From NCBI GenBank assembly GCA_020634975.1, contig JACKAQ010000001.1:297808-361807 (forward strand): a DNA stretch of 64,000 nt. The letters are read 5' to 3'. Source of the DNA: Calditrichia bacterium. Lineage in GTDB: Bacteria; Calditrichota; Calditrichia; RBG-13-44-9; J075. The notes under the pieces were generated by a model, which did no database searches, had not been told where the DNA came from, and saw only the letters and a program-made list of their open reading frames with translations. Of this stretch, positions 8,701 through 40,741 are shown one piece after another; within the stretch, counting starts at the first letter, position 1; every line of letters starts with the position of its first letter. The position numbers and the translations under genes are program-made.

Positions 8701-11700
8701 ACATCACCGCGGCGCTTTCCGGCAGTCAGTTGAACGTTAATGCTTCAACCGACTTCTCCGGCAGCGGCAACGTGATTGTCATCGCCTCAGACGGTTCGCT
8801 GACCGTTAGCGACACCTTTGCCGTCACCGTTAACGCGGTGAACGATGCACCGGTGGTTGCAACCATCCCGGATGTTTCCTTTTCCGAAGATGGCAGCACA
8901 ACCGTCGCACTGAACAATTATGTGAGTGACGTGGACAACCTCGATAGCGAAATTTCGTGGGCGGCTGAAGTGCTTTCCGCTTCCGGTACCGTCACCAAAG
9001 GCGGCGTTACCCGCGAAGTTACGCCCGCAGACCTGACCGTTTCGATAGACGGCGGCAACGTGGCAACCCTCTCTGCGACTGCGGATTCCAACGGTGTATT
9101 CACCGTGAAATTTACCGCAACCGATCCGGGTCTGCTCAGCGATACCGATACCGTCACTGTTACCGTCAGTTCGGTGAACGATGCGCCGTTTGTTGTAACG
9201 CCGATCTCCGATGTAACCTTCAACGAAGATGAAGGTCCGGTAACCGCAACAACCACACTGAGCTCAAACTTCAGCGATCCCGATCCGGGCACAACCCTGA
9301 ATTACACAGCAAGTTCGGATAACGCAAACATCACTGCCACCGTCACCGGCAGCCAGTTGACCGTCAACGCTTCCGCCAATTATTTCGGCACCGGAAACGT
9401 AGTCGTCACCGCCAGCGACGGCGCACTGAGCGTCACCGATACGTTTGCTGTCACCGTAAATGCAATCAACGATGCACCGGTAATTGCCACCATCCCGGAT
9501 GTTTCTTTCCCCGAAGATGGCAGCTCCACCGTTGCGCTCAACGATTATGTTGCAGACGTGGATAACCTCGATTCCGAAATCGGGTGGGTTGCTGAAGTGC
9601 TTTCCGCTTCCGGCACAGTCACCAAAAACGGCAGAACCCGGGCAATCACACCCGCAGACCTGACCGTAGGAATCGATGGCAACAACGTCGCGACTTTCTC
9701 CGCCTCTGCGGATTCCAACGGTGTGTTCACCGTTAAATTGACCGCAACTGATCCGGGTGACCTGTCAGATACGGACACCGTTACCGTGACCATCAGTTCG
9801 GTCAACGATGCGCCGTTTGTGACATCGGCTATCGGTGATGTATCTTTTGTTGAAGATTTGGGTCCGGTGGTTGCATCGGCGGATCTGAACAGCAACTTTG
9901 CCGATCCCGATCCGGGCACAACGTTGATCTTTACCGCAACCGCGGATGCCGGCATTCTGCCGAGCATCAGCAACGGTCAACTGACTGTAAACACGCAACT
10001 TAACTACACAGGTACCGGCAACGTGGTGGTTCGCGCCAGCGATGGCAGCGCATCCGTTACCGATACGTTCAGCGTAACCGTCAGCCCGGTCAACGATCCG
10101 CCGGCAATTGCTCCGGCAATGCCCGACATCTCCTTCCCAGAGGGTGAATCCACCACGCTGGCACTTAACGATTACGGCACCGACCCGGACAACCTGGACA
10201 GCGAACTGAGCTGGACAGCAACGGTGCTCTCCGCAACTTCCGGAACATTGACTGTTGATATCGACGGCAGCAACGTTGCCACCTTCTCCGCATCCGGTGC
10301 GGACAGCGGCGGCGTGTTCACCGTTAAATTCGACGTCAGCGACCCGAGCGCGCTCAGCGATACGGACACGATCACCGTGACCATCGCCAACGTGAACGAT
10401 GCACCGGTGATTGCCCCGGCGATCCCGGATATCAGCTTCCCGGAAGATGGCTCCACAACGCTCGGTCTGAACGAATATGTCAACGACATCGATAACCTCG
10501 ACAGCGAACTGAGCTGGACAGCCGAAGTGCTCTCAGCTGCCGGTACGGTTACCAAAAACGGCGTTACCCGCGAGATTACACCGTCGGATCTCACCGTTTC
10601 AATTGATGGAAACAACGTCGCATCGTTCGCCGCATCGGCGGATTCCAACGGCGTGTTCACCGTCAAATTTACCGTGACCGACCCGGGCGCACTCAGCGAT
10701 ACGGACACCATTCTGGTGACAGCAAACAGCGTCAACGACGCACCGGTGATTGCTCCGGCAATTCCGGATATCAGCTTCCCGGAAAACGGTTCGTCCACCC
10801 TTTCGCTGAACGATTACGTCACCGATATCGATCACAATGACAGCGAACTGAACTGGACAGCCGAAGTGCTCACCGGCAATGTTAACCAGTTGACCATCGC
10901 GATCGATGCCAATAATTCGGCGACTTTCTCCTCCTCGGCAGACAGCGGCGGCGTGTTCACTGTGAAGCTGACCGTAACCGACCCGGGCGATCTGTCCGAT
11001 ACGGACACGATTTCCGTGACCATCGCGGATGTGAACGACGCACCGGTGATTGCCCCGGCGATGCCGGATGTCAGCTTCCCCGAAGATGGCAGCACAACGG
11101 TCGCGCTGAATGATTATGTGAATGACATCGATAACCTCGACAGCGAACTGAGCTGGACAGCCGAAGTGCTCACTGCATCGGGAACGTTCACCAAAGACGG
11201 ACGCACCCGCGAAGTGACCCCGGCAGACCTCTCGGTCGCCATCGATGCGAACAATGTCGCAACCATCTCCGCAACCGCGGATTCCAACGGCGTGTTCACC
11301 GTGAAATTCACCGTAACCGATCCGGGCAACTTGTCCGATACGGATACGATCGCAGTGACCATCGCCAGCATCAACGATGCACCGGTGATCGCTCCGGCAA
11401 TCCCGGATGTCAGCTTCCCCGAAGATGGCAGCACCACCGTGGCGCTCAACGATTATGTTAGCGATGCGGATCACAGCGACGCTCAACTGACCTGGACAGC
11501 ACAGGTGCTCACCGCTACGGGCGGCAGCACAGCCGTGCAGATCGATCCGTCCGACCTGAGCGTAGCGATCGACGGAAACAACGTTGCCACCTTCTCCGCA
11601 ACAGCGGACAGCGGCGGCGTGTTCACCGTGAAATTCACCGTATCCGATCCGGGTAATTTGACCGATACGGATACCATCACCGTAACCGTGGAAAGTGTGA

Positions 11701-26267: not shown

Positions 26268-26945
26268 TTATCCGCCGAACAACGCAAAACCGCGTCTCGC
26301 TTCGCGGACAAATGTTGCCACCTTTTCAGCAGATTTCCGACCGTCCTCAGCCTCGACGCCGGTGTGCACATCCACCGCAGCCGGACGAACGATGCGAATC
26401 GCATCGAACACGTTTTCGGGTGTCAGTCCGCCGGCGAGCATCAGCGGTTTTGGGGAAATCTCCACGAGTTTCCGGCTGATTTGCCAATCGTGGGTTTTCC
26501 CGGTGGCACCATCCGCGCCCGTTGCCGGATCGTGCGTATCCGTAATAAAACCATCGACCAACGGCGCGAGTGTTTGGGTCATGTTTTCCAACTCGCTCAA
26601 ATTATCCCCGCGAACGATGAGGCTTTTTAAAATAAACACATCCGGCGCGGATTTCCGCAATTGTTGCAATTCTGCAAGTTCAATATTTCCATGAATTTGC
26701 ACGGTTTTGGCGTGCAGCATTTTGCACAATTCCAAAATTTCCGCCGCCGTGTTGAGATAGGTAATCAACACGCCAGAACGATTTTCCGGTAGATTGGCGA
26801 TAATCGCCGCTGCATCTGCATCGTTGATATCTTCCGCATTTACGGTCAATCGCAGCGGAAAGCCGAGCCAATCCACGCCCGAATCGAGCAGCAGTTGCGC
26901 TTCCGCAGCATCAATGATGCCGGCAATTTGAATGATATGTTTCAT
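26268..26945 (-). CDS. trpF: N-(5'-phosphoribosyl)anthranilate isomerase
   Basis: MKHIIQIAGI...KLVEISPKPLMLAGGLTPENV is a TIM-barrel TrpF signature. The six-frame ORF runs further upstream to 27563 only because there is no in-frame stop. Confidence 0.75.
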   Translation of the reverse strand: MKHIIQIAGIIDAAEAQLLLDSGVDWLGFPLRLTVNAEDINDADAAAIIANLPENRSGVLITYLNTAAEILELCKMLHAKTVQIHGNIELAELQQLRKSAPDVFILKSLIVRGDNLSELENMTQTLAPLVDGFITDTHDPATGADGATGKTHDWQISRKLVEISPKPLMLAGGLTPENVFDAIRIVRPAAVDVHTGVEAEDGRKSAEKVATFVREARRGFALFGG

Positions 26946-27083
26946 TTCGCAAGATAAACCATTGCGGCAGAAAATACAACCGGGATTCCGCATTCGCATG
27001 CGGCAACCGTTTGCTTTTTTGCTAACGCTTAAGTAACATTTATCTTTAAATTTATTACGATAAAACAAACTGCAGCGAAGAAA

Positions 27084-28049
27084 ATGAGAACAATCTCCGA
27101 AACACAACTGGACGAAATATTTGGCATCGGCAGCGCCGTCACATTTAAACAAGTGATTGAAGAAGCGCGAATGCTGGCAAAAATTCCCCGCCCGATCATG
27201 ATTCAGGGCGAACGCGGAACGGGCAAGGAATTGCTGGCGCGCGCCATTCATTTGGAAAGCGACCGGAAAAAACAACCGTATGTTGTGGTCAATTGTGCTG
27301 CGTTTCAGGAAGATTTGTTTGCTGCGGAAATGTTTGGCCGGGAAAAAGGCGCGTACACCGGCGCTGTTGATTCGCGTCCCGGCAGACTGGAACTGGCCGA
27401 CGGCGGCACGCTGTTTTTGGACGAAGTGGCGAATATGAGCCGTGCGGTTCAGGAAAAATTGCTTCGCGTGATCGAATATCAACAATTTGAACGGCTCGGC
27501 GGCAGCAAACCGATTTCGGTGGATGTGCGGATTATTGCCGCAACCAACGCCAATCTCGATCAACTCATGGAAAAATCAGAATTTTTGCCGGATTTGTATG
27601 ACCGGTTATCGTTTGCGGTGCTCACTTTGCCACCGCTGCGAAAACGACGGGAAGATATCCCATCGCTGATCGAACACTTCATTTGTCAACTCCACAAAGA
27701 AATTCCCAACCTCGAACACAAATCGTTTACGCCTTCCGCGATTCAGGAACTCCAGAATTACCATTGGCCGGGGAACATCCGGCAGCTCAAAAACATCATC
27801 GAGCGCATTTATATTTCCGACGAAGACGGTACCATCAACGCATCGGAACTGCCGATCGAAATTACATCTGTGGAACCGATCCGCGGTAATTTCTACGAAA
27901 AAGTGCGCGCGTACGAAATCAACCTGTTGCTCAACTCGCTGAAAGATTTTGATGGCAACCAGCGCGCCGCAGCCGAAAATCTTGGGATGTCTTACGACCA
28001 GTTCCGCCACTTCTACAAAAAATACAAGTTGGAAGATTATCTGGTGTAA
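27084..28049 (+). CDS. pspF: Sigma-54-dependent transcriptional activator, AAA+ domain plus C-terminal HTH only (PspF-like, no receiver or sensor domain)
   Basis: It has Walker A (GERGTGKE), a GAYTGA loop (GAFTGA variant), Walker B (LFLDEV), an arginine finger region and a C-terminal Fis-type HTH. Confidence 0.85.
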   Translation: MRTISETQLDEIFGIGSAVTFKQVIEEARMLAKIPRPIMIQGERGTGKELLARAIHLESDRKKQPYVVVNCAAFQEDLFAAEMFGREKGAYTGAVDSRPGRLELADGGTLFLDEVANMSRAVQEKLLRVIEYQQFERLGGSKPISVDVRIIAATNANLDQLMEKSEFLPDLYDRLSFAVLTLPPLRKRREDIPSLIEHFICQLHKEIPNLEHKSFTPSAIQELQNYHWPGNIRQLKNIIERIYISDEDGTINASELPIEITSVEPIRGNFYEKVRAYEINLLLNSLKDFDGNQRAAAENLGMSYDQFRHFYKKYKLEDYLV

Positions 28050-28118
28050 AACACCGACACCGTTGGCGCAATACACCAACCCGATTTCATAAGTTCAATA
28101 AAAACAATAGATTTATTT

Positions 28119-28134
28119 TGGCATTCAGATTGCA
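28119..28134 (+). promoter_or_regulatory. Sigma-54 (-24/-12) promoter
   Basis: TGGCAT-TCAGA-TTGCA has exact consensus spacing (GG at -24, GC at -12). It lies 70 nt downstream of the activator gene and ~180 nt upstream of the next ORF. Confidence 0.55.
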
Positions 28135-28312
28135 ATATTATGGCATGAAGCCTGTGAAGGGGCTGTTAAATGACCAAAATAAATGACAATATGAAACAGA
28201 TTTCCAGAAATTGTCGGGCAGATTTTCTCACCGGAAGATTTCCGGTTTATCCGCGGCAATTGCTGAGAAATATCTTTTTCAACGAACAAGCTTGAGTTTT
28301 TTGGGGTGTGTT

Positions 28313-28732
28313 ATGGTGCAGCAAGACCGTTTTCAATATGAAATGAAGAACATTCTGGAAGCAAAAACATTGCTGGTTGTGCGGGCTGCAAAGCGCGTTC
28401 ACTACCGGTTGGGCAATGTTTCCGATCAAAAAAATTATCTGGATGCATTACAACGCGAATTTGAAGCGGATCATATTCGCTTCAAGAAAGAAGAACCGCA
28501 GCCGGAAGAAGACCTGCCCTCGCGAAGGCTAAAAAAGGATTATCTCTGCTTTGGCAACATGCTGGTGCGAACTATTAATGGTAATGTGATTCCCGAAAAC
28601 GATATTTTAAATTTTCGTAAAGAGCTGAAAAGATTAAACTTGCAATGCGGACTGATCGTAGGATTTTCGGATGACGGCATTGTCGTTGAACGGGTGACGG
28701 TTACAGAATCAAATAAACACAATTTATCCTGA
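28313..28732 (+). CDS. Hypothetical protein, first gene after the sigma-54 promoter
   Basis: It is a 139-aa ORF co-directional with the cluster. I recognise no domain. Confidence 0.4.
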   Translation: MVQQDRFQYEMKNILEAKTLLVVRAAKRVHYRLGNVSDQKNYLDALQREFEADHIRFKKEEPQPEEDLPSRRLKKDYLCFGNMLVRTINGNVIPENDILNFRKELKRLNLQCGLIVGFSDDGIVVERVTVTESNKHNLS

Positions 28733-28748
28733 GCAAACGGAGCACATC

Positions 28749-29282
28749 ATGAAAACAGTACCGCTATTTGAAGAAGAGCAGCAATTTCGCCAACCCTGGC
28801 TGATGGCGCTGCTCGGCATTACGGTGGCGCCGATTACACTGTTTTTGATTTATGTGATGATTTCGCAACTGGTTTTCGGAATTCCGGTTGGCAGCAAACC
28901 GATGCCGAACGCGATGGCCATCTGGTTCATGCCGTTGATGGTGTTGATTTGCAGCGGCATTATTTGGTTGTTTTGGAAAAGCAAATTAATCGTTCGCATC
29001 GATTCGGAAATGCTGCTTATCCGTTTTTTCCCATTCACGAAACGGGAAATACCGCTCTCGAAAATCCGGGAATTTGAAGCGCGGAAATACAATCCGCTCG
29101 GCGAATACGGTGGTTGGGGCGTACGATTGGGCTGGAAAGGCGGCAAAGCCTACACGGTCAGCGGAAATCACGGTGTTCAATTTGTGTTTCGTAATGGCGA
29201 AAAATTGTTGATCGGCTCGCAAAAAGCGACAGAATTTGAAGCTGCACTGCGGAGCGCTCTCGCTGAAAAAATAGACAAATAA
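28749..29282 (+). CDS. Membrane protein with 2 TM helices plus a C-terminal bacterial-PH-like domain (hypothetical)
   Basis: It has two N-terminal TM segments followed by a ~90-aa beta-rich domain. Confidence 0.5.
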   Translation: MKTVPLFEEEQQFRQPWLMALLGITVAPITLFLIYVMISQLVFGIPVGSKPMPNAMAIWFMPLMVLICSGIIWLFWKSKLIVRIDSEMLLIRFFPFTKREIPLSKIREFEARKYNPLGEYGGWGVRLGWKGGKAYTVSGNHGVQFVFRNGEKLLIGSQKATEFEAALRSALAEKIDK

Positions 29283-29332
29283 ATGTTTAATAATATTACA
29301 CTTACAACACTCATTTTTCGGAGGATTTTATC

Positions 29333-30055
29333 ATGAATATTTTTCAAAGAATCACAAAATTGGTCGAAGCCAACGTCAATTCGATGCTGGATAAAGCCGA
29401 AGACCCGGAAGTGATGGTTCGCCAAATCATTCGTGAAATGGAAGAAAGCATCATCGAATTGCGCCGCGAAACCGTAAAAGCCGTTGGCGCCCGCAAATTG
29501 CTGGAAAAGAAAATGCAGCTGCTCAATGAAAAATCCGCTGATCTCCAGCAAAAAGCCACACTCGCGCTGGAAAACGGAAACGAAGATTTAGCGCGCAAAT
29601 TGCTGGAACAAAAAATCGATGTCGAGAAAGAGAACAGCCAACTCGCAAATGAAGTAGAAACAGCAACTTATCTTGCCGAAAAAATGAAACAGGATTTGGT
29701 AAAACTGGAAGACCAGGTGCAAATTGCCCGTCGCCAAAAAGAGGAATTGATTCGCCGTAAACTCGCCGCCGAACGCAAAATGAACGCCACCGGCGCCATT
29801 CGCAAAACCCGCGATGCGTTGGAAGCGCTCACCGGTGCCACCAATAGTGCGGACGCGAATATCAACGCCATCGAAGCGCAAAAAGATAAAATTCTGCAAT
29901 TGGAAGCCGAAGCCGAGGCGATGGAAGAATTGATGGAAGGGAAATCCGCAGACGCCGAAAGCGAAAAAGAGCTGGAAAAAATGATCCAGAATAAAGCGGT
30001 GGAAGACGAATTGGCAAAGCTGAAAAAGATGCTCAGTGACGGCAAAAAAAAGTAG
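29333..30055 (+). CDS. pspA: PspA/IM30 (Vipp1/LiaH) family protein, paralog 1
   Basis: There is a GGAGG ribosome-binding site. The N-terminus MNIFQRITKLVEANVNSMLDKAEDPEVMVRQIIREMEE is followed by a long coiled coil, the typical PspA signature. Confidence 0.85.
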   Translation: MNIFQRITKLVEANVNSMLDKAEDPEVMVRQIIREMEESIIELRRETVKAVGARKLLEKKMQLLNEKSADLQQKATLALENGNEDLARKLLEQKIDVEKENSQLANEVETATYLAEKMKQDLVKLEDQVQIARRQKEELIRRKLAAERKMNATGAIRKTRDALEALTGATNSADANINAIEAQKDKILQLEAEAEAMEELMEGKSADAESEKELEKMIQNKAVEDELAKLKKMLSDGKKK

Positions 30056-30784: not shown

Positions 30785-30982
30785 ATGATTACCAAAGATT
30801 ACCACCGCACATTATTTCTTTCGATGATTTTGATCGCCCTCGGTGTGTCGATTTCCACCACAATGGGGGATTCTTCGGGCACCATTGGCACGGTGATGAT
30901 CGCCGTTGGCGGCTTATTTTTTATCATCGGAATGACCAAAAGAAGAAAATTTGAACAAAAAAATCACCACCCAAAATCATAG
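30785..30982 (+). CDS. Small 2-TM membrane protein
   Basis: It has a GGAGG ribosome-binding site, 65 aa and two hydrophobic helices. Confidence 0.4.
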   Translation: MITKDYHRTLFLSMILIALGVSISTTMGDSSGTIGTVMIAVGGLFFIIGMTKRRKFEQKNHHPKS

Positions 30983-30993
30983 AAAGGTTAGCT

Positions 30994-31173
30994 ATGATAT
31001 ACGTTGGTTTACTGATTTTAGCTTATGTGGCGGTTTGTCTCTATCGCGGAAATTTGATTTGGGAATTGGGCGTTTCCCGCCGCAGTAACAGTCCTTATTT
31101 TTACTGGTTTGGTATCGGAACTTATTCGGTAGTCGCGCTGATGATGATTTACGCAGGCTACATAAATCTATAA
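30994..31173 (+). CDS. Small 2-TM membrane protein (59 aa), not in the ORF track
   Basis: An AAAGG ribosome-binding site precedes it. The sequence is MIYVGLLILAYVAVCLYRGNLIWELGVSRRSNSPYFYWFGIGTYSVVALMMIYAGYINL. Confidence 0.3.
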   Translation: MIYVGLLILAYVAVCLYRGNLIWELGVSRRSNSPYFYWFGIGTYSVVALMMIYAGYINL

Positions 31174-31228: not shown

Positions 31229-32773
31229 ATGGATTTCATAAGTGCTATCATATTTATCGTTGTTATCCTCGCGGTTGTTGTGGTGATGATGGTCAGCCGC
31301 TTGCTGATTGTCTGCCATCCCAACGAAGTTGTGATACTTTCCGGACGCAAACGTAAACTGCCGGACGGATCGATTGTCGGTTACCGGCTCATTCGCGGCG
31401 GTCGCGCGGTGCGCATGCCGGTGCTGGAAAAAGCAGCCCGCATGTCGCTGGAATCGATTCCCCTGGAGCTTTCGGTGCGCAACGCGTATTCCAAAGGCGG
31501 TATTCCGTTGAATGTGGATGCCATCGCCAACATCAAAATTGATTCGACAGAACCGGCGTTCGGCAACGCGGTCGAGCGTTTTTTGATGAAACCGATGCAG
31601 GAAATTCACCAGATTGCGAAAGATACGCTGGAAGGTAACCTGCGCGGCGTGCTGGCATCGCTGACGCCGGAAGAAGTGAACGAAGACCGCCTGAAGTTTG
31701 CCCAAAGCCTTATCGAAGAAGCGGATAACGATTTGAACCAACTCGGTTTGCAACTCGATACGCTGAAAATTCAGAATGTCGCGGACGAAGCGGGATATCT
31801 CGATTCGATCGGTCGCCGCAAAACCGCCGAAGTGCTCTCAACCGCACGAATGGCAGAAGCCGCAAAAGCCGCCGAAGCGGAACAGGCAGAAGCGGAAGCA
31901 CGCCAGTTTGCGGAAATTGCCAAAGCCAAAGCAGATCAGGAAATTAAAGCGGCGCAAATTTCTGCGGATCGCGAAGTGAAGATGGCCAAAGCCCGCGCCG
32001 ATGCCGCAGCCCGTCAGGCGGAAGCGGAGCAGGAAGCCGTCGCAAAGGAAGCGGAAGCGACATCACTGCGGAAAGCTGAGGTCGCAAAAGCAATGGCTGA
32101 TCAGGAAATTCGCACATCGCAAATTAAGGCAGATCAAGAGGTTAAGGTATCTCGCGCTATTGCAGATCAACAGATCGAAACTGAGAACAACAATCTGCGT
32201 ATGAAAAAAGCGGAACTGGAACGCGAAGCCATTATCATGGAAAAAGAAGCGGAAGTTGCCGGACAAAAAGCCCAGGCAAAATACGAACAGGATATGGAAG
32301 AAGAACGCATTCTGCTGCAACAAAAACGCCTGATGGCAGACGTTATCGAACCCGCAAAAGCCAAAAAAGAAGCGATGGAGCTGGAAGCACGCGGCGAAGC
32401 TGCGCCGATTCTCGAGAAAGGTAAAGCGAACATCGAAGTGCTGGATCAGATGATCAAAACCTACCTCAGCGCCAAAGGTGAAGGCGAAAAAGTATTCATG
32501 CTGAACATGTTGCCGGATATTATCAAACAACTGTCCGACACGGTGAACAAGGTCACGATCGACAAAGTGAGTGTGATCGACAGCGGCGGAAACGGCAGCC
32601 ACGGCGTGGCAAATTTCATCAACCAGTTGCCCGCAGCAGTGGTTTCGCTGGCGGAACAGATCGAAAACGCCACCGGTGTGAACATCCTCAACCAGTTCAA
32701 ACAGAAACCGGAAATTGGTCAGATTGTCCACCACAACGGTGAGCACGACAAAGCGAAAGATGATGAGAAGTAG
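31229..32773 (+). CDS. floT: Flotillin (SPFH/Band-7 domain, FloT/YuaG-like)
   Basis: It has an N-terminal TM segment and an SPFH domain, followed by long Ala/Glu-rich EA-repeat coiled coils (AEAEQAEAEARQ...). Confidence 0.85.
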   Translation: MDFISAIIFIVVILAVVVVMMVSRLLIVCHPNEVVILSGRKRKLPDGSIVGYRLIRGGRAVRMPVLEKAARMSLESIPLELSVRNAYSKGGIPLNVDAIANIKIDSTEPAFGNAVERFLMKPMQEIHQIAKDTLEGNLRGVLASLTPEEVNEDRLKFAQSLIEEADNDLNQLGLQLDTLKIQNVADEAGYLDSIGRRKTAEVLSTARMAEAAKAAEAEQAEAEARQFAEIAKAKADQEIKAAQISADREVKMAKARADAAARQAEAEQEAVAKEAEATSLRKAEVAKAMADQEIRTSQIKADQEVKVSRAIADQQIETENNNLRMKKAELEREAIIMEKEAEVAGQKAQAKYEQDMEEERILLQQKRLMADVIEPAKAKKEAMELEARGEAAPILEKGKANIEVLDQMIKTYLSAKGEGEKVFMLNMLPDIIKQLSDTVNKVTIDKVSVIDSGGNGSHGVANFINQLPAAVVSLAEQIENATGVNILNQFKQKPEIGQIVHHNGEHDKAKDDEK

Positions 32774-32948: not shown

Positions 32949-33395
32949 GTGAAGATAGAGCTAAAAGGCGAAAAAGAGAGACTAATCAAACTCATTTTAT
33001 CAAAGCTATTCATCAGCCTTTTATTGGGGATGTTTAACGGTGCAGTTGTAGATAATATTAAAATAGGATTCTGGTCGGTTTTAATTTTCATAGCAACATT
33101 TACGGCTTCCTATTTTATTAGAAATTACATTCGTGTTCGACTTTATCTAACTGCTGTTCTATGGGGTTTGGTTTGGGGCGCATGTATGTCAGGTATCTTA
33201 ACACTCAATTATTACGGACGACATGGGTTCAGAGATGATACGATCGCATTAGCAATTATTATGCTTTTGGGTTATTCACTCATGTTCGTAATAGATATTT
33301 ATATTGGGAGACATGATTATATTAAACCAGATTTTCAGTCTTATGGTGAGTTTTACAAAAGCTGGTTCAATTATAAGTATCTTAAAAACAAATAA
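32949..33395 (+). CDS. Hypothetical 4-TM membrane protein in an AT-rich islet (GTG start)
   Basis: The ORF is 148 aa. The local GC (~33%) is far below the neighbours. Confidence 0.3.
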   Translation: MKIELKGEKERLIKLILSKLFISLLLGMFNGAVVDNIKIGFWSVLIFIATFTASYFIRNYIRVRLYLTAVLWGLVWGACMSGILTLNYYGRHGFRDDTIALAIIMLLGYSLMFVIDIYIGRHDYIKPDFQSYGEFYKSWFNYKYLKNK

Positions 33396-33427
33396 TTAGA
33401 CTCAAAATATTTGAAAGGAGCACAGTA

Positions 33428-33991
33428 TTGGGATTCACAAATTTTTTCAAAGGAAAAAAAGAAGGTGAAGAATTTGATCCACTACGGGACTTGACACTTT
33501 CAAAAATGAAGGTCGGGTATTTTGTTGAATTTGATCTGAAAACCTGGCAGGTTACCGCATACAATAAATACGATTTTGGCGACGGCTTATGGAGCGAGGA
33601 ATGGGAACTGACCTCCGGTCGCGAAAAAATCTGGCTGGAAAAACGCGAAGATGACGAAGTGGAATGGACCGTCAGCAAAAAGCTGCCAATCGGCGCAATT
33701 GCGGAAGATGTCCGCCAGCACGTCAAAGATTTCGACGATCCGCCGGGGCAAATTTCCGTGAAGGAAAAAACGTTTTATCTGGATGAATCCGGTTCGGTCT
33801 ATTATTATCCCGGTGGCAACACTCAACAACAGGGTCAGGGTATCATCGCATGGGAATATATTGATGATGACGATGAAAATTTTGTGAGCATCGAGCAATG
33901 GGGCGAGGATGATTTTGAAGCATCGCAAGGCTATTATGTGGAAGAATTTATGTTTAGCAACATCCTGCCGTCGGGGGACGCACAAGCTTGA
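33428..33991 (+). CDS. DUF4178-like protein (PspA-neighbourhood family)
   Basis: It has a TTG start after AAAGGAG. The sequence KVGYFVEFDLKTWQVTAYNKYDFGDGLWSEEWEL...IWLEKREDD fits the DUF4178 pattern as I recall it. It has an acidic C-terminus. Confidence 0.45.
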   Translation: MGFTNFFKGKKEGEEFDPLRDLTLSKMKVGYFVEFDLKTWQVTAYNKYDFGDGLWSEEWELTSGREKIWLEKREDDEVEWTVSKKLPIGAIAEDVRQHVKDFDDPPGQISVKEKTFYLDESGSVYYYPGGNTQQQGQGIIAWEYIDDDDENFVSIEQWGEDDFEASQGYYVEEFMFSNILPSGDAQA

Positions 33992-34102
33992 CGGAAGCAT
34001 GGATAAAGGATAAAGTAAATTTTTTGACTTTTTCAATATTAAACAATAAAAAACAACATTTCTAAATCAATAAAATACAAACACTTAAAAAAGGGGTTTG
34101 TT

Positions 34103-34819
34103 TTGAAAAAAACAATTACATTTGCACTTTTCGGAATTGTTGCGTTGCTGCTGTCGAGCTGCGGCGCATCGAATCCGGTTGAGAAAATGCAACGCGAGCT
34201 GGACGATTATCCGGAATATTCCATTATTCTGGAAGATATGAAAATGGAAGGCACTTTTTTTAAGGATTACTTTCATCAATATAAAATTATTCATGCGGAA
34301 AAAGCCGGTGATTCGCTGGCATATTTCACCAATCAAACAGAATGGATTTTGGTAGATGAAGATTTTTTCAGCAATTACCAACGGTATTTGGGAATGACAA
34401 TTGCATCCAAATCTGCTGAAGGTGATGTGAGCGACTCTCCGCAACCGCCGGGCTACCAATATGTTGGCGATGAACGCTACGGCCAATGGCGAACCGATAA
34501 CTCCGGCAACAGCTTTTGGGAATTTTACGGAAAATATGCCATGTTGCAGGCGCTGCTCGGCGGCTGGAATCGCCCGATTTATCAGGATGACTGGCGCGAT
34601 TACCGCACCTCCCGGCGCAACAATCAGCCGTATTTCGGCAAAAATCGCCAGTGGGGCACCGACGGAACCGCAACGAAAAAAACGAATCCAACATTTTTCC
34701 AACGCCGCCAAATGCGCGAGCAGGCGTCCAAACAATCCTTTACGGATAAGCTGAAACAACGCACACGCCGCAGTAATATGAGTAAATCCCGAAGCCGCAG
34801 CGGTGGTTTTGGAAAATAA
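34103..34819 (+). CDS. Lipoprotein with a basic C-terminal tail (possible DUF4247-type partner of DUF4178)
   Basis: It has a lipobox (LLSSC) and a Trp/Tyr-rich central region. The C-terminus is KLKQRTRRSNMSKSRSRSGGFGK. Confidence 0.5.
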   Translation: MKKTITFALFGIVALLLSSCGASNPVEKMQRELDDYPEYSIILEDMKMEGTFFKDYFHQYKIIHAEKAGDSLAYFTNQTEWILVDEDFFSNYQRYLGMTIASKSAEGDVSDSPQPPGYQYVGDERYGQWRTDNSGNSFWEFYGKYAMLQALLGGWNRPIYQDDWRDYRTSRRNNQPYFGKNRQWGTDGTATKKTNPTFFQRRQMREQASKQSFTDKLKQRTRRSNMSKSRSRSGGFGK

Positions 34820-34834
34820 ACAAATGAGGAAATA

Positions 34835-35017
34835 ATGAAACATAACGATCAAAATCAGGACAATAAAAAAGAAATGGGAAAATGGGTTGCCGTTGGCATC
34901 GCTATCGGAACGGCAATGGGCGTTTCGATGGATAATATCGGGCTTGGCATCTCGTTGGGTCTTGTGATCGGTCTGGCAATCGGCACAGTAAAATCCCGAA
35001 ATGATAAAACGGAGTAA
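34835..35017 (+). CDS. Glycine-zipper small membrane protein
   Basis: It has a GAGGAA ribosome-binding site. The sequence is WVAVGIAIGTAMGVSMDNIGLGISLGLVIGLAIG. Confidence 0.45.
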   Translation: MKHNDQNQDNKKEMGKWVAVGIAIGTAMGVSMDNIGLGISLGLVIGLAIGTVKSRNDKTE

Positions 35018-35020
35018 AAA

Positions 35021-35866
35021 ATGACTTTAGACCAAACCATATCCGGACTAATTTACCTTATTGCAGTGTTTATACTTTTTTGGCTGGGAAAAGTGGTTTA
35101 TGGAATAACCAATCCGCGCATCAATTTGCGCGATGAATTGGTGAAAAAAGATAATCTGGCGATGGCGCTGGCAGTGATCGGCTACTATTTCGGGCTGATT
35201 ATCGCGTTGGGTGGCGTGCTTTCCAGCGAATCCGCAGGATTGTTCATCGATCTGTTCGAAATATTTTTTTACGGCATTATTTCGATTGTCCTGATGAATT
35301 TTTCGATTAAAATCAATGACAAAATCATCCTCAGCAAATTTGACAATATCAAAGAAATTATCGATGATCAGAACGCCGGAACGGGCGTTGTGGAAGCGGC
35401 CAACCACATTGCTGTGGGCATGATTATCGCCGGCGCGATGAGCGGCGATTACGGCGGCTGGGCAACTGCGCTCACATTCTGGATTTTGGGACAAGCCGTG
35501 CTGATTGTCGCAGGCATTGTTTACGCCAAAATTCTGCCGTTCGATCTGCACGCGGAAATCGAAAAAGATAACGTTGCTGTGGGCGTTGCGTTTGCGGGTG
35601 TGCTGATCGCCATCGGCAACATCTTGCGCATCGGCTCCACCGGCGATTTTATTTCGTGGCAACAGAATCTCACCACGTTTTTCGGATTCGTCATATTCGG
35701 ACTGGTGCTGCTGCCGGTTTTGCGCTTTCTGACCGACAAAGTGTTGCTCCCCGGCGAAAAACTTACCGATGAACTGGTGAACCAGACAAATCCGAATATC
35801 GGTGCCGGTGCGGTGGAAGCGTTTGCCTATATCGGTGCGTCGTTTTTGATTGGTTGGGTTATATAG
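35021..35866 (+). CDS. Membrane protein with internally repeated DUF350-like units
   Basis: There are four repeats of N-x-A-x-A/G-x-x-x-x-G-x-x-I-A-x-G with TM helices: DNLAMALAVIGYYFGLIIALGG, NAGTGVVEAANHIAVGMIIAGA, DNVAVGVAFAGVLIAIGN and NIGAGAVEAFAYIGASFLIG. Confidence 0.5.
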   Translation: MTLDQTISGLIYLIAVFILFWLGKVVYGITNPRINLRDELVKKDNLAMALAVIGYYFGLIIALGGVLSSESAGLFIDLFEIFFYGIISIVLMNFSIKINDKIILSKFDNIKEIIDDQNAGTGVVEAANHIAVGMIIAGAMSGDYGGWATALTFWILGQAVLIVAGIVYAKILPFDLHAEIEKDNVAVGVAFAGVLIAIGNILRIGSTGDFISWQQNLTTFFGFVIFGLVLLPVLRFLTDKVLLPGEKLTDELVNQTNPNIGAGAVEAFAYIGASFLIGWVI

Positions 35867-35914
35867 CTGGTTTCTAGTTTCTGGTTTCTGGTTTCTGGAT
35901 TGAAGATTCTGGAT
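35867..35914 (+). repeat. Heptamer array TTCTGGT/TTCTGGA (x5, degenerate) immediately 5' of the four-helix-bundle gene
   Basis: The sequence is ctggtttctagtttctggtttctggtttctggattgaagattctggat. Confidence 0.6.
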
Positions 35915-35951
35915 GCTCTGAAAAATGTAAACTTAAGTGCAGAATGTGAAA

Positions 35952-36395
35952 ATGAGTTACAAAAAATTGCAGATATGGCAGCTATCTCGTGAAATTGTGA
36001 TTGATATTCACAAAATGACGCTGGAAACGTTACCAAAATTTGAGATGTTCGAAACAGGATCACAAATTCGCAGATCGAGCAAATCGACCAAATCTTTGAT
36101 TGTGGAAGGATACGGCAGGCGCTATTATAAACAGGATTTCATACGTTATTTATTGAATGCGCTCGCCTCTAACGATGAAACAATTGATCATTTAGAAACC
36201 CTTTTCGAAACAAAGTCTTTATCTGATTCAATTCTGTACGAAAACATACACGAACGGCTTATTTCTTTAGGTAAAATGCTCAACAATTTCATCAACTCGG
36301 TTCAAAAAAATCATCAGACACCATCGATTTATGTAAAGGAAGAAATGCCAGACTATCTGAATTTTCCGGAAACAAAAGATGACAAAACAGAATAA
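35952..36395 (+). CDS. Four-helix-bundle protein (TIGR02436, 23S rRNA intervening-sequence protein family)
   Basis: [59 protein letters not shown] matches the family. GC is ~33% against ~52% for the neighbours. Confidence 0.7.
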
Positions 36396-36451
36396 AATTT
36401 TTGCAAATATAGATTCGGAATCCAGAACTTGCGCTGAGCGCAGCCGAAGCG

Positions 36452-36481
36452 TCCAGAATCCAGAATCCAGAATCCAGAATC
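36452..36481 (+). repeat. Heptamer array TCCAGAA x4 (reverse complement of the upstream array) immediately 3' of the four-helix-bundle gene
   Basis: The sequence is tccagaatccagaatccagaatccagaatc. It is preceded by a further TCCAGAA copy and the near-palindrome GCGCTGAGCGC at 36421-36445. Confidence 0.6.
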
Positions 36482-36495
36482 TCTCCGGCAACTGG

Positions 36496-38013
36496 TTGCT
36501 GAAAGCCTGCATTTTCGCCACCGGGTTATCCGGAATTGTGGCGGAATACGTGATGTCCACGCTGGCGAGTTATCTGCTCGGTAACTCCGTTTTGCAATGG
36601 ACACTCACTATTTCCATCATGCTGTTTGCGATGGGCGTTGGCAGCCGTTTCAGCAAATTTGTGGATGACGCGTTGCTGGATGCCTTCGTTTTCACGGAAT
36701 TACTGCTCTCCGTTTTATGCGCGATCAGCGCTACAACTATCTATTTTTTATCGGCTTACATGAATCCGATAACACCGCTGATTTACACGCTGTCATTCGC
36801 AATCGGTTTGCTGATCGGGCTGGAAATTCCGCTGGCAACCCGTCTCAACGATTATTTTGAGGATTTGAAAATCAACATCAGTTCGGTAATGGAAAAAGAT
36901 TATTACGGCGCGTTGCTCGGCGGCTTGCTGTTTGCGTTTGTCGCCCTCCCCTACCTCGGTTTAACTTATACGCCCATTTTGCTCGGCGCAGTAAATTTTG
37001 CAGTCGCGGCGGCGCTATTTTGGCAGCATCGCGATTCGCTAAAATTTCCGAAAACACTCACTGCCGGATTTTTGATCGTGCCCGCCTTGCTCGGCGCATT
37101 GGCCGTTTCGGCGGAGCCGATTGTGCTGTATGGCGAGCAGCAAAAATATGTGGATAAAGTTGTTTATCAGGAGCAAACGCCCTATCAGCGAATTGTGATC
37201 ACTCAATTCAAAAATGATTACTGGCTGTATCTCAATGGAAATGAACAATTTAGCAGCTACGACGAACACCGCTATCACGAACCGCTGGTGCATCCGGCAA
37301 TGCTGGCGAGCGTTGCGCATAAAAATGTGCTGATTCTCGGTGGCGGCGATGGATTGGCTGCGCGGGAAATCCTCAAATATCCCGACGTCGAAAAAATTAC
37401 GTTGGTCGATCTCGATCCGGCGATGACGGAACTCGGCAAGAATTACCCGGTTTTTCGCCAACTCAACCAAAATGCGCTCAGCGATCCCCGGGTGCACATT
37501 CGCAACGAGGACGCATACACATTTTTGCAGCAAACCCGGGAAATTTTCGATGTGATTATTATCGATTTGCCCGACCCGAAAACCATCGAGCTGGCGCGAT
37601 TGTACACCCGGGAATTTTATCAATTGGCGAAACGTCAACTGTCCAAAGGCGGGATTGTGGTTACGCAAGCTGGCAGCCCGTTTTTTTCACGGGAAGCGTA
37701 TCTCTGCATATTGCAAACGATGCGAACTGCCGGATTGGCTGCGATTCCTTATCACAACCACATTCCAACACTCGGCGAATGGGGCTGGGTGCTGGCAATG
37801 AATGCGGAAATTGACGAAAATCGTTTGAAAAATCACCTGCTATCACTATCATTTGATGATTTGCAAACACGTTTTTTAAACCGGGACGCAATGGCGGCGA
37901 TGCTTCTTTTCGGCAAAAACGAACTGGCCGGTATCGATGCCATTCGCGTTAATTCTGAACTGGAACTCGCATTATTTGATTATTACAAAAATGGGTCGTG
38001 GGAATTTTATTGA
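36496..38013 (+). CDS. Spermidine/spermine-synthase-like aminopropyltransferase fused to an N-terminal polytopic (~7 TM) membrane domain
   Basis: The C-terminal domain has LILGGGDGLAAREILKYPDVEKITLVDLDP...DVIIIDLPDP, the SpeE fold motifs. The N-terminal 220 aa are hydrophobic helices. The start is uncertain: I use TTG 36496, and the open frame begins at 36379 inside the repeat. Confidence 0.7.
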   Translation: MLKACIFATGLSGIVAEYVMSTLASYLLGNSVLQWTLTISIMLFAMGVGSRFSKFVDDALLDAFVFTELLLSVLCAISATTIYFLSAYMNPITPLIYTLSFAIGLLIGLEIPLATRLNDYFEDLKINISSVMEKDYYGALLGGLLFAFVALPYLGLTYTPILLGAVNFAVAAALFWQHRDSLKFPKTLTAGFLIVPALLGALAVSAEPIVLYGEQQKYVDKVVYQEQTPYQRIVITQFKNDYWLYLNGNEQFSSYDEHRYHEPLVHPAMLASVAHKNVLILGGGDGLAAREILKYPDVEKITLVDLDPAMTELGKNYPVFRQLNQNALSDPRVHIRNEDAYTFLQQTREIFDVIIIDLPDPKTIELARLYTREFYQLAKRQLSKGGIVVTQAGSPFFSREAYLCILQTMRTAGLAAIPYHNHIPTLGEWGWVLAMNAEIDENRLKNHLLSLSFDDLQTRFLNRDAMAAMLLFGKNELAGIDAIRVNSELELALFDYYKNGSWEFY

Positions 38014-38089
38014 GAACCGATTGATAAACAACCTGATCAGCAAAATAAAATCGAATAGATAGAAGCCAAAAGCCAAGTGCCAAAAGCCA

Positions 38090-39100
38090 ATGAAAAATAT
38101 TGCCCATAACATTATCAAATTTGTCATCAAGGAAAACCTGCACCGCATTTTGCTGATCATGTTGTTGCTGATTGTTTTCGGTGCGGTGGGCATGGCGATT
38201 TTTGAGCCGAATGTCAATTGGGATAACGCATTGTGGTGGAGTATCGTCACGTTGACCACTGTCGGATATGGCGATATTGCGCCAACTACGTTCGGCGGGC
38301 GCATCGTTGGATCGATCATCATGATTTTGGGTATCGGCATTTTGGGGATGTTCACGGCAACCATCGCCAGCGTATTTGTGGAGCAAAAACTGAAAGTGAA
38401 TCGCGGAATGAGTAATTACGATTTCACCAATCACACGATTATTTGTGAATGGAATTATCGCGCCAAAGAAATTTTGAGAGAGCTGCGTTCAGACAGTCGC
38501 GTGCTGGATCAACCCATCATTTTGATCGCAGATATCGACGAAAAACCGGTGAATGACGAAAATCTCCATTTCATCAAAGGCGAAGTGGACGAAGCAAATT
38601 TGCAGCGCGCCAATATTGCGGCTGCAAAAACGGTCGTCATTCTCGGCGATGACAAATTGGATAACAACGCCCGCGATGCGCAAGTGGTGCTCGCTGCGCT
38701 GATTATCGAATCCATCAACCCGAGCGCTTACACAATTGTGGAATTGGTGAACGAACAAAACGTGGCGCATTGCCGTAAAGCGCATGTGGACGAAATTATT
38801 GTTTTAAATGAGTTTAGCAGCCGCCTAATTGCCCGCGCAGCGCTCGATCACGGTATTTCGAAAGTGATGAGCGAACTGCTCAGCGCCAGCACCGGCAACA
38901 ATTTGTATCAGGTGCCGGTGCCCCGCGAACTGGCAGATCAATCATTTCTGGTTGTGTTTTCGGAGATGAAACGCACCCGGAACAGCATTGTTCTGGCGGT
39001 GTATCGCCGGGATCAGGATATCGTAATTTCCAACCCGGATGTGGATTTGAAAGTAGCAGCGAACGACCAGTTGGTCATCGTTTCGCAAAACGAACAGTAA
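38090..39100 (+). CDS. MthK-like K+ channel (2TM pore plus RCK/TrkA-N domain)
   Basis: The selectivity filter is TLTTVGYGD, followed by an RCK Rossmann domain. Confidence 0.85.
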   Translation: MKNIAHNIIKFVIKENLHRILLIMLLLIVFGAVGMAIFEPNVNWDNALWWSIVTLTTVGYGDIAPTTFGGRIVGSIIMILGIGILGMFTATIASVFVEQKLKVNRGMSNYDFTNHTIICEWNYRAKEILRELRSDSRVLDQPIILIADIDEKPVNDENLHFIKGEVDEANLQRANIAAAKTVVILGDDKLDNNARDAQVVLAALIIESINPSAYTIVELVNEQNVAHCRKAHVDEIIVLNEFSSRLIARAALDHGISKVMSELLSASTGNNLYQVPVPRELADQSFLVVFSEMKRTRNSIVLAVYRRDQDIVISNPDVDLKVAANDQLVIVSQNEQ

Positions 39101-39114
39101 TTTGAGGTGATGAA

Positions 39115-39480
39115 ATGTCCCTTTTTTCGAGAATCGCAGGAATTATTCGCGCTAACCTGAATTTCCGGCGCGATGATGTTGACATCGACGATAGCGTTTA
39201 CGAAGAAATTCGTGATTCGCAGCGCGAATATCAACGCCAAAAACAGCAGCGCAACGATGCCAATCATCACCGGAATGACGATCCGTTGGCCAAACACTAC
39301 GCCAATCTTGAAGTGCCGTACGGCTCGGATCTGGAAACTGTCACCAAATCGTGGAAAGCGTTGCTGCGCAAATATCACCCGGATATTCATTCCGGCGATC
39401 CCGAAAAACAGAAAATTGCGAATCAACTTGTTCAGGAATTAAACCAATCTTATAATGAGTTGAAAAAAAAGTTACGCTAA
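39115..39480 (+). CDS. J-domain protein (C-terminal DnaJ domain) with a PspA-like N-terminal amphipathic helix
   Basis: The J domain is DLETVTKSWKALLRKYHPDIHSGDPEKQKIANQLVQELNQSY (HPD motif). The N-terminus MSLFSRIAGIIRANLN parallels MGIFSRIFKIF and MNIFQRITKLVEANVN of the two PspA paralogs. Confidence 0.65.
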   Translation: MSLFSRIAGIIRANLNFRRDDVDIDDSVYEEIRDSQREYQRQKQQRNDANHHRNDDPLAKHYANLEVPYGSDLETVTKSWKALLRKYHPDIHSGDPEKQKIANQLVQELNQSYNELKKKLR

Positions 39481-39556
39481 AAATTGATCATAAATAATTG
39501 TTTTCATTAGGATTAATCAACACAATTAATTCACTATTACAACAGGAGGCTAACGT

Positions 39557-39958
39557 ATGGCCATGTTTAGCAAATTCGAAATGGTTAAGGATTATTTAAT
39601 GGAACTCGGCTTTGCGATTATTCGCGAAGATGAGGATGAAGAGATCGTGGTTGTAAATGATCCCGATAATGGCATCAACAATATGGTCATCGATTGCGAA
39701 GACCCGATTGTGATTATGGAGCAATTGATTATGGAAGTGCCGGAAAAACCCGGTGATTTGTATGAAAAATTGCTGAAAATGAACCGCACACTGGTTCACG
39801 GCGCATTTGTGCTGGATGAAGAAGGCAAACGCGTTATTTATCGCGATACGCTGCAGTTGGAAAATCTCGATAAAAATGAGCTGGAAGCCTCGATTGTCGC
39901 GCTTTCCATGGGCATTGCAGAATTTGGCAGCGAGTTGCTGAAATACGCAAAACGCTAA
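39557..39958 (+). CDS. YbjN-like small acidic protein (candidate PspA-associated partner)
   Basis: It has an AGGAGG ribosome-binding site and 133 aa. It lies immediately upstream of the second pspA. Confidence 0.45.
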   Translation: MAMFSKFEMVKDYLMELGFAIIREDEDEEIVVVNDPDNGINNMVIDCEDPIVIMEQLIMEVPEKPGDLYEKLLKMNRTLVHGAFVLDEEGKRVIYRDTLQLENLDKNELEASIVALSMGIAEFGSELLKYAKR

Positions 39959-40021
39959 TTTTTTTATCGCTTAACTATTTGATAATATTTAATTTGAAAC
40001 CAAACTTCAGGAGATAAAAAG

Positions 40022-40741
40022 ATGGGTATTTTTTCGCGCATATTCAAAATTTTCCAGTCGGAGGCGCATTCAGTTGTGGATCAACTGGAAGATCCGATCA
40101 AATTGACCGAACAGGGCATTCGCGATTTGAAAAAAGATTTGGCGCAAGCCATGCGTAGCCTGGCGGAAGTGAAATCGTTGTCCATCCGCATGCGCAAAGA
40201 CGGCGAAGACCAGAAAAAGCTTGCTGCCGATTACGAACGCAAAGCCATGATGCTGCTCCAACGCGCCCAAAGCGGCGAACTGGACGCCGCAGAAGTTGAC
40301 CGTTTGGCAACCGAAGCGCTCACCAAAAAAGAAGATTCCTCACGCCGCGCACAGGAATTTATGACCAATCACGAGCAGCAGCAGAAAATGGCTGACCAGT
40401 TGCAGAACAAAGTGAACAAACTGAAATCTGCGATTTCCAAATATGAAAACGAGTTGGTCACTCTTCGCGCCCGCGCCCGCACTGCGGAATCGATGAAAAA
40501 AATCAACAAACAAATGGCGCAAGTTGATGCATCCAGCACCGTTGCGATGCTCGAAAAAATGAAAGACAAAGTGACCGAAGAAGAATCGCTGGCGGAAGCC
40601 TACGGCGAAATGGCCGACACAACCAAATCCGTTGACGAAGAAATTGACAAAGCGTTGGCGGGTGCGTCTGTGGATGCCGCAAAAGATTCGCTGGCAGCGC
40701 TAAAAGCCAAAATGGGCTTAAAAGAAGGCGATGCCAAATAG
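40022..40741 (+). CDS. pspA: PspA/IM30 family protein, paralog 2
   Basis: The N-terminus MGIFSRIFKIFQSEAHSVVDQLEDPIKLTEQGIRDLKKDL is followed by a coiled coil. Confidence 0.8.
   Translation: MGIFSRIFKIFQSEAHSVVDQLEDPIKLTEQGIRDLKKDLAQAMRSLAEVKSLSIRMRKDGEDQKKLAADYERKAMMLLQRAQSGELDAAEVDRLATEALTKKEDSSRRAQEFMTNHEQQQKMADQLQNKVNKLKSAISKYENELVTLRARARTAESMKKINKQMAQVDASSTVAMLEKMKDKVTEEESLAEAYGEMADTTKSVDEEIDKALAGASVDAAKDSLAALKAKMGLKEGDAK

Follow-up and report, generated by a model that had tools for sequence, protein, structure and literature searches.

The DNA considered here, which we call the window, is a stretch of 64,000 nucleotides from a Calditrichia bacterium (assembly GCA_020634975.1, contig JACKAQ010000001.1, positions 297,808 to 361,807 of the forward strand), and all coordinates below are those of the window. 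At 27084-28049 it carries the gene for a bacterial enhancer-binding protein (bEBP), an activator of sigma-54 RNA polymerase that resembles PspF of Escherichia coli and has no regulatory domain. Directly after this gene come two palindromes, an AT-rich element resembling an IHF (integration host factor) site, and a putative -24/-12 promoter, followed on the same strand by an operon that includes a gene for PspA. Comparisons of sequence lead us to think it probable that this arrangement switches an operon for membrane stress (PspA/flotillin) through sigma-54 and an enhancer, in the manner of PspF. Its central features are the following, with the motifs of the activator placed by residue mapping and the two palindromes, the candidate upstream activating sequences UAS1 and UAS2, given without strand:

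27084-28049, + strand: gene for the PspF-like sigma-54 activator lacking a regulatory domain, 321 residues (Pfam, NCBIfam, phmmer against PDB, BLASTP)
27207-27230, + strand: Walker A motif, GERGTGKE
27252-27269, + strand: loop equivalent to the W56 loop of PspF (L57, E58, K62)
27348-27365, + strand: GAYTGA sigma-54 contact loop (residues 89-94)
27585-27587, + strand: Leu168, aligned with the arginine finger R162 of PspF
about 27960-28031, + strand: helix-turn-helix (HTH) of the activator
28041-28057: distal palindrome UAS1, CTGGTG-taaaa-CACCGA (CTGGTGtaaaaCACCGA), overlapping the last two activator codons and the TAA stop
28063-28079: proximal palindrome UAS2, TTGGCG-caata-CACCAA (TTGGCGcaataCACCAA), candidate enhancer
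28102-28114, + strand: AT-rich IHF-like element AAACAATAGATTT, two mismatches to the consensus WATCAANNNNTTR, immediately upstream of the -24 element
28119-28134, + strand: predicted sigma-54 -24/-12 promoter TGGCAT-tcaga-TTGCA (TGGCATtcagaTTGCA), from pattern search and conservation, with a predicted start at about 28145
28145-28312, + strand: predicted untranslated 5' leader, ~167 nt, its length not shared by other loci
29333-30055, + strand: PspA/IM30 protein (PspA1), 240 residues, third gene downstream of the activator (Pfam PspA_IM30, PF04012, 117.5 bits)

The activator was matched by Pfam to Sigma54_activat (PF00158) over residues 16-178 (208 bits, E=1e-61), to AAA_lid_14 over residues 186-263 and, weakly, to HTH_8 over residues 278-308 (17.8 bits vs a gathering score of 22), an architecture in which a AAA+ domain beginning at residue 16 is joined to an HTH of the Fis type at the C terminus. 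An N-terminal sensor domain is impossible because the ATG is preceded by just 17 open codons and then a stop codon. The top NCBIfam family is PspF (TIGR02974, 353.8 bits; NifA scored 295.7), and PspF is also the best match in PDB by phmmer, where the alignment runs ungapped over the W56 loop. These results bear out the preliminary description of this DNA, which had read the protein as the AAA+ sigma-54 interaction module with a GAYTGA loop plus an HTH and nothing else. Over residues 15-316, HTH included, it is 44% identical to E. coli PspF by BLASTP, the HTH aligning with PspF residues 302-325, and both proteins share the absence of a sensor domain, the GERGTGKE Walker A and a recognition helix of the form (S/T)Y(H/D)QFR...KK. 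Six residues of the HTH (Y304, Q306, F307, R308, K312 and K313) hardly vary among 120 homologs and are shared with E. coli PspF.

The hallmarks of a working bEBP are likewise present, namely Walker A, Walker B, the switch Asn, an Arg of the R168 type and the sensor II Arg, and the equivalents of PspF K42, N64, D107, E108, R168 and R227 are kept in 119-120 of the 120 homologs. The contact loop of these homologs has Y in 29 (GAYTGA) and F in 91 (GAFTGA) with the T invariant, and GAYTGA is a documented functional variant, found in HrpS and in Clostridiales EBPs (sources on the F85Y loop variant and on the W56 patch discussed below: PMC3791423, PMC6003685, PMC3105312). HrpR and HrpS of Pseudomonas syringae are themselves domain-less bEBPs, inhibited in trans by HrpV, and HrpS always has GAYTGA; with PspF they make up a known class of bEBPs that have no such domain and answer instead to a protein acting in trans. 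HrpRS, however, is an obligate hetero-hexamer whose target is the hrpL promoter, in a regulon for type III secretion, whereas the activator described here is a single gene in a pspA/flotillin context; no further bEBP or other open reading frame (ORF) with a GAFTGA-type loop was found in the window, and no Hrp family occurs among the 25 best NCBIfam matches of the activator, of which PspF is the best.

The pattern TGGCAY-N5-TTGCW has a single match in the window, TGGCATTCAGATTGCA at 28119-28134 on the + strand, in which GG and GC are 12 nt apart, and it is still the single match when one mismatch is allowed. A lone consensus match in 64 kb is not beyond chance, as 0.32 exact matches are expected per window and at least one occurred in 31 of 100 shuffles; its significance comes from conservation. 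Our comparison set comprised 45 loci from a genome scan and 6 from exact-protein look-ups, and the counts that follow refer to those 14 of its loci that are non-identical, extend downstream of the activator and have activators at least 61% identical. Counted at a score of at least 9.5, a -24/-12 element lies within 350 nt downstream of the activator in 11 of the 14, against a background of 0.028 per kb, which gives a binomial tail of ~2e-20 that is an upper bound on the significance because the loci share ancestry and are not fully independent. The element stands 72-75 nt past the last activator codon in the window and in L008, L013, L016, L017, L018, L020 and L051, and further out (97-302 nt), with insertions present, in L038, L014, L009 and L012. 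Invariant columns of the DNA alignment are the GGC of -24, the TTGC of -12 and two TGG.G blocks, the latter being parts of TTGGYG-N5-CRCCAA palindromes. The -12 of L015 reads TTGTA, as in E. coli pspA and pspG.

Could the match nevertheless be fortuitous, with the operon read through from the activator promoter or served by an unrecognised housekeeping promoter? The chance expectation given above speaks for this, and no + strand terminator was found between the activator gene and the operon, so that some read-through expression is possible. It is difficult to reconcile, however, with the recurrence of the element in 11-12 of 14 diverged loci, with a distance to a conserved palindrome that stays fixed where insertions have occurred, with its position directly before pspA in L017, L020 and L051, and with the finding of no sigma-70-like site on the + strand of the activator-operon intergenic region. 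We therefore give this explanation next to no credence: the conservation effectively excludes a chance occurrence of the promoter, and the -24/-12 element is well supported as a genuine, conserved predicted promoter for the operon with pspA. The exact GG/GC spacing and the connection to pspA had both been put forward in the preliminary description, and they stand, with pspA third in line on the same strand here and following the activator co-directionally in 12 of the 14 loci (as the first gene in L017, L019, L020 and L051). A scan for GG-N10-GC was uninformative. The predicted leader is much shorter in L017, L020 and L051 (~30-60 nt); an Rfam scan of 26800-29400 returned nothing credible and the folding of the 167-nt leader was not significant (z = -1.34), so that a riboswitch or attenuator in the leader is unsupported.

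The two palindromes are spaced with similar regularity. Counted from the first G of the -24 GG, UAS1 is centred 71 nt and UAS2 49 nt upstream, so that their centres are 22 bp apart; the left half-site of UAS1 (TGG[TC]G plus TAA) is invariant in alignment A1, and UAS2 is the sole exact TTGGYG-N5-CRCCAA in the window. Twelve of the 14 loci have a proximal palindrome with its centre between -49 and -53, that of L014 is at -62, and L051 has the left half-site alone; a distal one is found at -70 to -73 in half of the loci (7 of 14), and L015 and L038 have extra sites at -94/-95. The spacing of palindrome and promoter is kept despite insertions after the end of the gene in L009 and L012 (~220 nt), L015 and L044 (~1.7 kb), and a combined search for a palindrome (at most one mismatch) 30-120 nt upstream of a -24/-12 element returned, over ~1 Mb of strand, these sites and a handful of others. 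The insertions themselves separate the activator stop from the enhancer/promoter module (L009 1227-1500, L012 1316-1610, L044 445-2120), and those of L009 and L012 are rich in TTTTCACTTTGCAC-type repeats.

The closest parallels to these sites were found in E. coli. The pspF-pspA intergenic region of that organism contains ATGATG-aaatt-CGCCAC and TTAGTG-taatt-CGCTAA, whose centres precede the GG of TGGCACgcaaaTTGTA by 94 and 74 nt, in agreement with the published pair of pspA UASs and with the placing of enhancers in synthetic PpspA designs; from position and symmetry we infer that the E. coli palindromes marked here are the actual PspF contacts. UAS2 is near-identical to the second of them. 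E. coli pspG has GTAGTC-aaatt-CACCAC at -61 and, directly upstream of its promoter TGGCATgattcTTGTA, an exact IHF consensus AATCAATAGATTA in the same position as the AT-rich element of the window, and window positions 28105-28136 (CAATAGATTTATTTTGGCATTCAGATTGCAAT) align without gaps to the pspG promoter, 24 of 27 positions outside the N5 spacer being identical. IHF is known from the literature to act at psp promoters. Within the window the IHF assignment is a matter of resemblance only, at two mismatches, and AAACAAnnnnTTA, which has one mismatch to the same consensus, occupies the equivalent position in L016, L017, L018, L019 and L020. The enhancer centres of our loci and of E. coli fall at about -51, -62, -72 and -94, in steps of ~11 bp, and since all differ by multiples of that length the two groups appear to share a requirement for one helical face. 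Common to both systems, then, are near-identical half-sites (two sites at pspA), helical phasing, an IHF-type element beside TGGCAY-N5-TTG(C/T)A and pspA as the target. Set against this, the layout here is tandem and not divergent, one enhancer overlaps the activator stop codon and the enhancers lie about two helical turns nearer the promoter. The sigma-54/PspF-type cis logic is well supported all the same, as the gene architecture, the promoter, the enhancer sites and the way in which these elements are conserved and phased can be read directly from the aligned loci.

The genes surrounding these elements, with the basis of each assignment in brackets, are:

upstream of the activator, opposite strand: PRAI (trpF-type) gene (domain assignment)
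28313-28732, + strand: first operon gene, 139 residues, weakly GxxExxY / PD-(D/E)XK_3-like, in Calditrichia loci only
28749-29282, + strand: DUF6141-like membrane protein (match under the Pfam cut-off)
from 30114, + strand: 206-residue membrane protein with an acidic repeat and no Pfam match (ORF list)
30785-30982 and 30994-31173, + strand: two small membrane proteins (ORF list)
31229-32773, + strand: flotillin/Band 7 protein (domain match)
32949-40741, + strand: remainder of the same-strand cluster, starting with a protein of no assigned family and including the genes below
33428-33991, + strand: DUF4178 (domain match)
between DUF4178 and DUF350, + strand: a 238-residue and a 60-residue protein, no assigned family (ORF list)
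35021-35866, + strand: DUF350 (domain match)
35937-36395, + strand: 23S_rRNA_IVP (domain match)
36379-38013, + strand: spermine synthase (domain match)
38090-39100, + strand: K+ channel (domain match)
39115-39480, + strand: DnaJ-domain protein (domain match)
39557-39958, + strand: CesT_Tir_1/YbjN, chaperone-like type (domain match)
40022-40741, + strand: second PspA, PspA2 (PF04012, 145.4 bits)

The gaps between these + strand genes are short. No terminator-like site was found in the + strand intergenic gaps from 28.0 to 40.7 kb, and the genes beyond 40741 are on the - strand. PspA1 is 31% identical to E. coli PspA (BLASTP) and scores 119.6 bits for TIGR02977 vs a cut-off of 243; PspA2, which closes the cluster, also falls under that cut-off, is 25% identical to PspA1 and has the higher Pfam score. 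The combination of pspA, a homolog of the 206-residue protein and flotillin recurs in L009, L012, L015, L018, L019, L038, L044 and L051. Ravi et al. 2024 (PMC11237479) described flotillin/Band 7, CesT_Tir, DUF4178-type and spermine-synthase genes among the neighbours of PspA, and the content of the present operon fits the PspA partner themes of that survey. Two small genes of the cluster, the GxxExxY/PD-(D/E)XK_3-like gene at 28313-28732 and 23S_rRNA_IVP at 35937-36395, are of types frequent in intervening sequences. The divergent intergenic region between the PRAI gene and the activator holds a perfect palindrome, CCGCATTCGCATGCGG at ~26983-26998, which could be an operator or a hairpin. Elsewhere in the window, identical 14-mers recur at ~6100-9700 with a period of ~627 nt and its multiples (e.g. 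GGCAGCAACGTGGC at 6207, 6834 and 8424), which suggests a gene of long tandem repeat domains.

Did this module reach Calditrichia recently from a proteobacterium, as the word "transplanted" in the preliminary description may be taken to mean? The close likeness of enhancer, IHF-like element and promoter to those of E. coli pspG and pspA would fit such an origin, and the activator identity of 62-68% between metagenome-assembled genomes (MAGs) assigned to different phyla fits some lateral spread. Yet the activator is only 44% identical to E. coli PspF and belongs to a separate, tight clade (one cluster at 50% identity) that departs from classic PspF both in the W56 loop and at the R162 position, and its tandem gene order, which takes in flotillin, DUF4178, DUF350 and spermine synthase, is not the one seen in Proteobacteria. 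All activators at least 61% identical are domain-less, and their carriers are MAGs labelled Calditrichia/Calditrichaceae, Deferribacteres, Acidobacteriota, Thermodesulfobacteriota (L051) and, in one case, 'Deltaproteobacteria'; one Calditrichia MAG chromosome (OZ245730.1) matched the window at 99% identity in the genome scan, and across the many Calditrichia MAGs with the clade the intergenic regions have diverged. The GC profile of the window is 43-50% throughout, with no local anomaly. As the clade is distinct and widely spread among Calditrichia MAGs, and as the composition profile is flat, recent transfer is disfavoured; we hold it to be very unlikely, and the idea of a transplant into this particular bacterium is not supported.

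Beyond the clade, matches of 45-52% identity in Latescibacterota, Gemmatimonadota and others were rejected as members, since most carry a receiver domain of ~145 residues; L021 (Lentisphaerales) and L040 are the domain-less ones among them. The homologs of 46-50% identity at L022 (5500-6906), L026, L039 and L040 mostly have this ~145-residue extension, which in L022 is a receiver domain, whereas L040 has none, and those in Latescibacterota and Gemmatimonadota have the HTH signature of the clade, SYDQFRHFYRKY. L026 (~429), L039 (~1182) and L040 (~1262) have TGGTG-N5-CACCA and a -24/-12 element directly before pspA, ~5 kb upstream of the activator. It is possible, judging by these matches, that the receiver-carrying loci are a response-regulator version of the same regulator/target pair. 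The Lentisphaerales homolog (51% identity) is arranged divergently with pspA, as in E. coli, and its intergenic region (L021 5750-6000) has two TGGTG-N5-CACCA sites (also given as ATGGTG-N5-CACC); a correctly spaced -24/-12 element was not found there.

How, then, might the switch work? DNA binding, sigma-54 dependence, the start site and all regulation in trans are here what we infer from these comparisons. Activator dimers would bind through the HTH to UAS1, at the end of their own gene, and to UAS2, just beyond it, as conservation and the likeness to the E. coli psp enhancers suggest, and with the sites 22 bp apart and ~49 and ~71 bp upstream of the GG both dimers would occupy one helical face. 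The AT-rich IHF-like element between these sites and the promoter probably bends the DNA, so that the assembled AAA+ ring, through its GAYTGA loops, could remodel the closed complex of RNA polymerase and sigma-54 at TGGCAT-N5-TTGCA, and transcription would proceed from ~28145 into the GxxExxY-like gene, DUF6141, pspA, flotillin and onward. As there is no sensor in cis, as pspA is the one constant neighbour and as the PspF and HrpR/S class is controlled in trans, the leading idea is that PspA gates the activator in a negative feedback released on membrane stress; we consider this the most likely form of control, although it falls a little short of being probable.

Several observations weigh against a PspF-type switch of this kind or set it apart from that of E. 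coli, in addition to the missing terminator mentioned above. No ORF with an RpoN box was found in the window, no PspB or PspC match was obtained at E<=0.01 in the 18 cluster ORFs scanned, and no UAS-like site occurs within 250 nt upstream of the activator in any of the 14 loci. One 75%-identical ortholog, at L010 6001-6966, is an orphan, with neither enhancer, promoter nor pspA found within 6 kb and with convergent genes downstream. The activator is also under both NCBIfam PspF cut-offs (TIGR02974, 353.8 vs 443.55; NF008622, 298.5 vs 529), and the clade members L051 and L020 behave alike with scores of 340 and 343, whereas the control, E. coli PspF, passes with 541 and 678.6. Two hallmarks of PspF, moreover, are absent from the protein. 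PspA docks on E. coli PspF at Y51, L52 and W56, the YLW hydrophobic patch of the W56 loop (PMC3791423), and its control is abolished in E. coli by W56A or Y51C; an ungapped alignment puts L57, E58 and K62 of the activator at these positions. The columns of the docking loop are variable in the clade, the W56 column being mostly R/A/C/H/E/G with Trp outside the six commonest residues (120 homologs). Classic PspF-type representatives in a library clustered at 50% identity retain HYLSxRW. The position of R162 is Leu or Met in 118 of 120 close homologs.

The preliminary description had called the arrangement canonical Psp logic, and this now holds in part: the sigma-54/PspF-type cis arrangement stands, while the tandem layout, the lack of an enhancer upstream of the activator, and hence of autoregulation of the E. 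coli type, the failure to find PspB and PspC and the missing YLW patch set the locus apart. The operon has no PspB, PspC, PspD or PspE and carries in their place a second PspA along with genes for flotillin, DUF4178, DUF350 and spermine synthase. A domain-less, single-component EBP beside phage-shock genes outside Gammaproteobacteria is not without precedent. By its published description the activator can be likened to DVU2989 of Desulfovibrio vulgaris, which comparative genomics predicted to be a PspF-type EBP controlling DVU2988-2986 (Kazakov et al. 2015, PMC4641369).

The loss of R162 deserves separate attention. Joly et al. 2012 saw in R162 the 'genuine' arginine finger and called the RxDxxxR motif to which it belongs 'ubiquitous'. 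The ATPase of PspF is nearly abolished by the R162A substitution, which has a very low tabulated kcat of 0.18. The corresponding region of the activator reads F-L-P-D-L-Y-D-R-L, without a finger of the R162 type, whereas E. coli PspF has Arg there, as has each of the 27 more distant bEBPs among the loci studied. Since a substitution at this position is so damaging in E. coli, the biochemistry of E. coli PspF may not carry over to the activator. Basic residues specific to the clade that could substitute for R162 are R120, R53 and K187. Six proteins of the 50%-identity library (P0166, P0169, P0177, P0207, P0233 and P0258) look like classic PspF, with HYLSxRW and LLDRL, yet have M, K or L at the R162 position, and the existence of several such W56-containing proteins suggests that RxDxxxR is less universal than published.

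Clustering at 50% identity reduces the whole clade to one or two representatives, which marks it as a tight subfamily. It may be, and we advance this tentatively and with more doubt than the gating by PspA, that the activator represents a distinct PspF-like subfamily that kept the PspF recognition helix, the enhancer grammar and the pspA target and lost both the YLW patch and the R162 finger. If so, ATP hydrolysis must use a different inter-subunit site, for which R120, an Arg specific to the clade, could provide the finger at a new location, and gating in trans would proceed via another surface or would not involve PspA. In that case the relatives from Latescibacterota and Gemmatimonadota, which combine this HTH with a receiver domain, would show a single pspA enhancer/promoter design coupled to alternative inputs.

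That PspA has no part in the control, the cis wiring being the same, is a reading to be taken seriously even if we think it rather unlikely. The activator might be constitutive and limited by its abundance, or it might be gated by another product of the operon, by a membrane or lipid cue or by a heteromeric AAA+ partner that supplies the finger. The absence of the docking patch in a loop that the clade does not conserve, the replaced finger and the lack of PspB and PspC among the scanned cluster ORFs all lend themselves to this view, and the HTH relatives fused to receiver domains in Latescibacterota and Gemmatimonadota, some of which have a UAS-plus-promoter arrangement before pspA, suggest that control of the regulator has been rewired in evolution. 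Three points nonetheless incline us towards gating by PspA. First, of the genes next to the domain-less clade, pspA alone is constant. Second, E. coli PspF has a second, unmapped PspA-binding site, so that the loss of W56 is not decisive and PspA control of the activator is still possible. Third, a sigma-54 activator without any brake would make an enhancer switch pointless. If PspA does gate the activator, the contact surface must differ from the YLW/W56 patch of E. coli.

What do these observations add? The PspF-pspA logic is textbook knowledge, and many proteins of the clade have already been labelled 'psp operon transcriptional activator' by JGI pipelines; our literature search found no papers on sigma-54 in Calditrichota. 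New, as far as the aligned sequences can tell, are an enhancer/IHF-like/promoter grammar apparently common to Calditrichia and E. coli, a tandem layout in which a putative enhancer overlaps the stop codon, and the definition of a predicted subfamily that lacks the R162 finger as well as the YLW patch. Published Psp surveys have either left PspF aside, as did Ravi et al. 2024 (PMC11237479), who omitted transcription factors from detailed analysis, or could not tie PspF-like proteins outside Enterobacteriaceae to a Psp response. Popp et al. 2022, for instance, found PspF described in Enterobacteriaceae only and PspF-like proteins elsewhere hard to connect with that response. Here the tie is made at the level of DNA, as the same half-site, helical phasing, IHF-like element and -24/-12 promoter stand before pspA from E. 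coli to Calditrichia, which supports the published idea of a minimal PspF-PspA core. The pattern TTGGYG-N5-CRCCAA, followed ~40 nt later by TGGCAY-N5-TTGCW, is a ready search motif for uncultured phyla. Finally, the clade offers a natural experiment for the AAA+ mechanism and for regulation in trans, as its members have evidently been selected as activators with two essentials of E. coli PspF absent.

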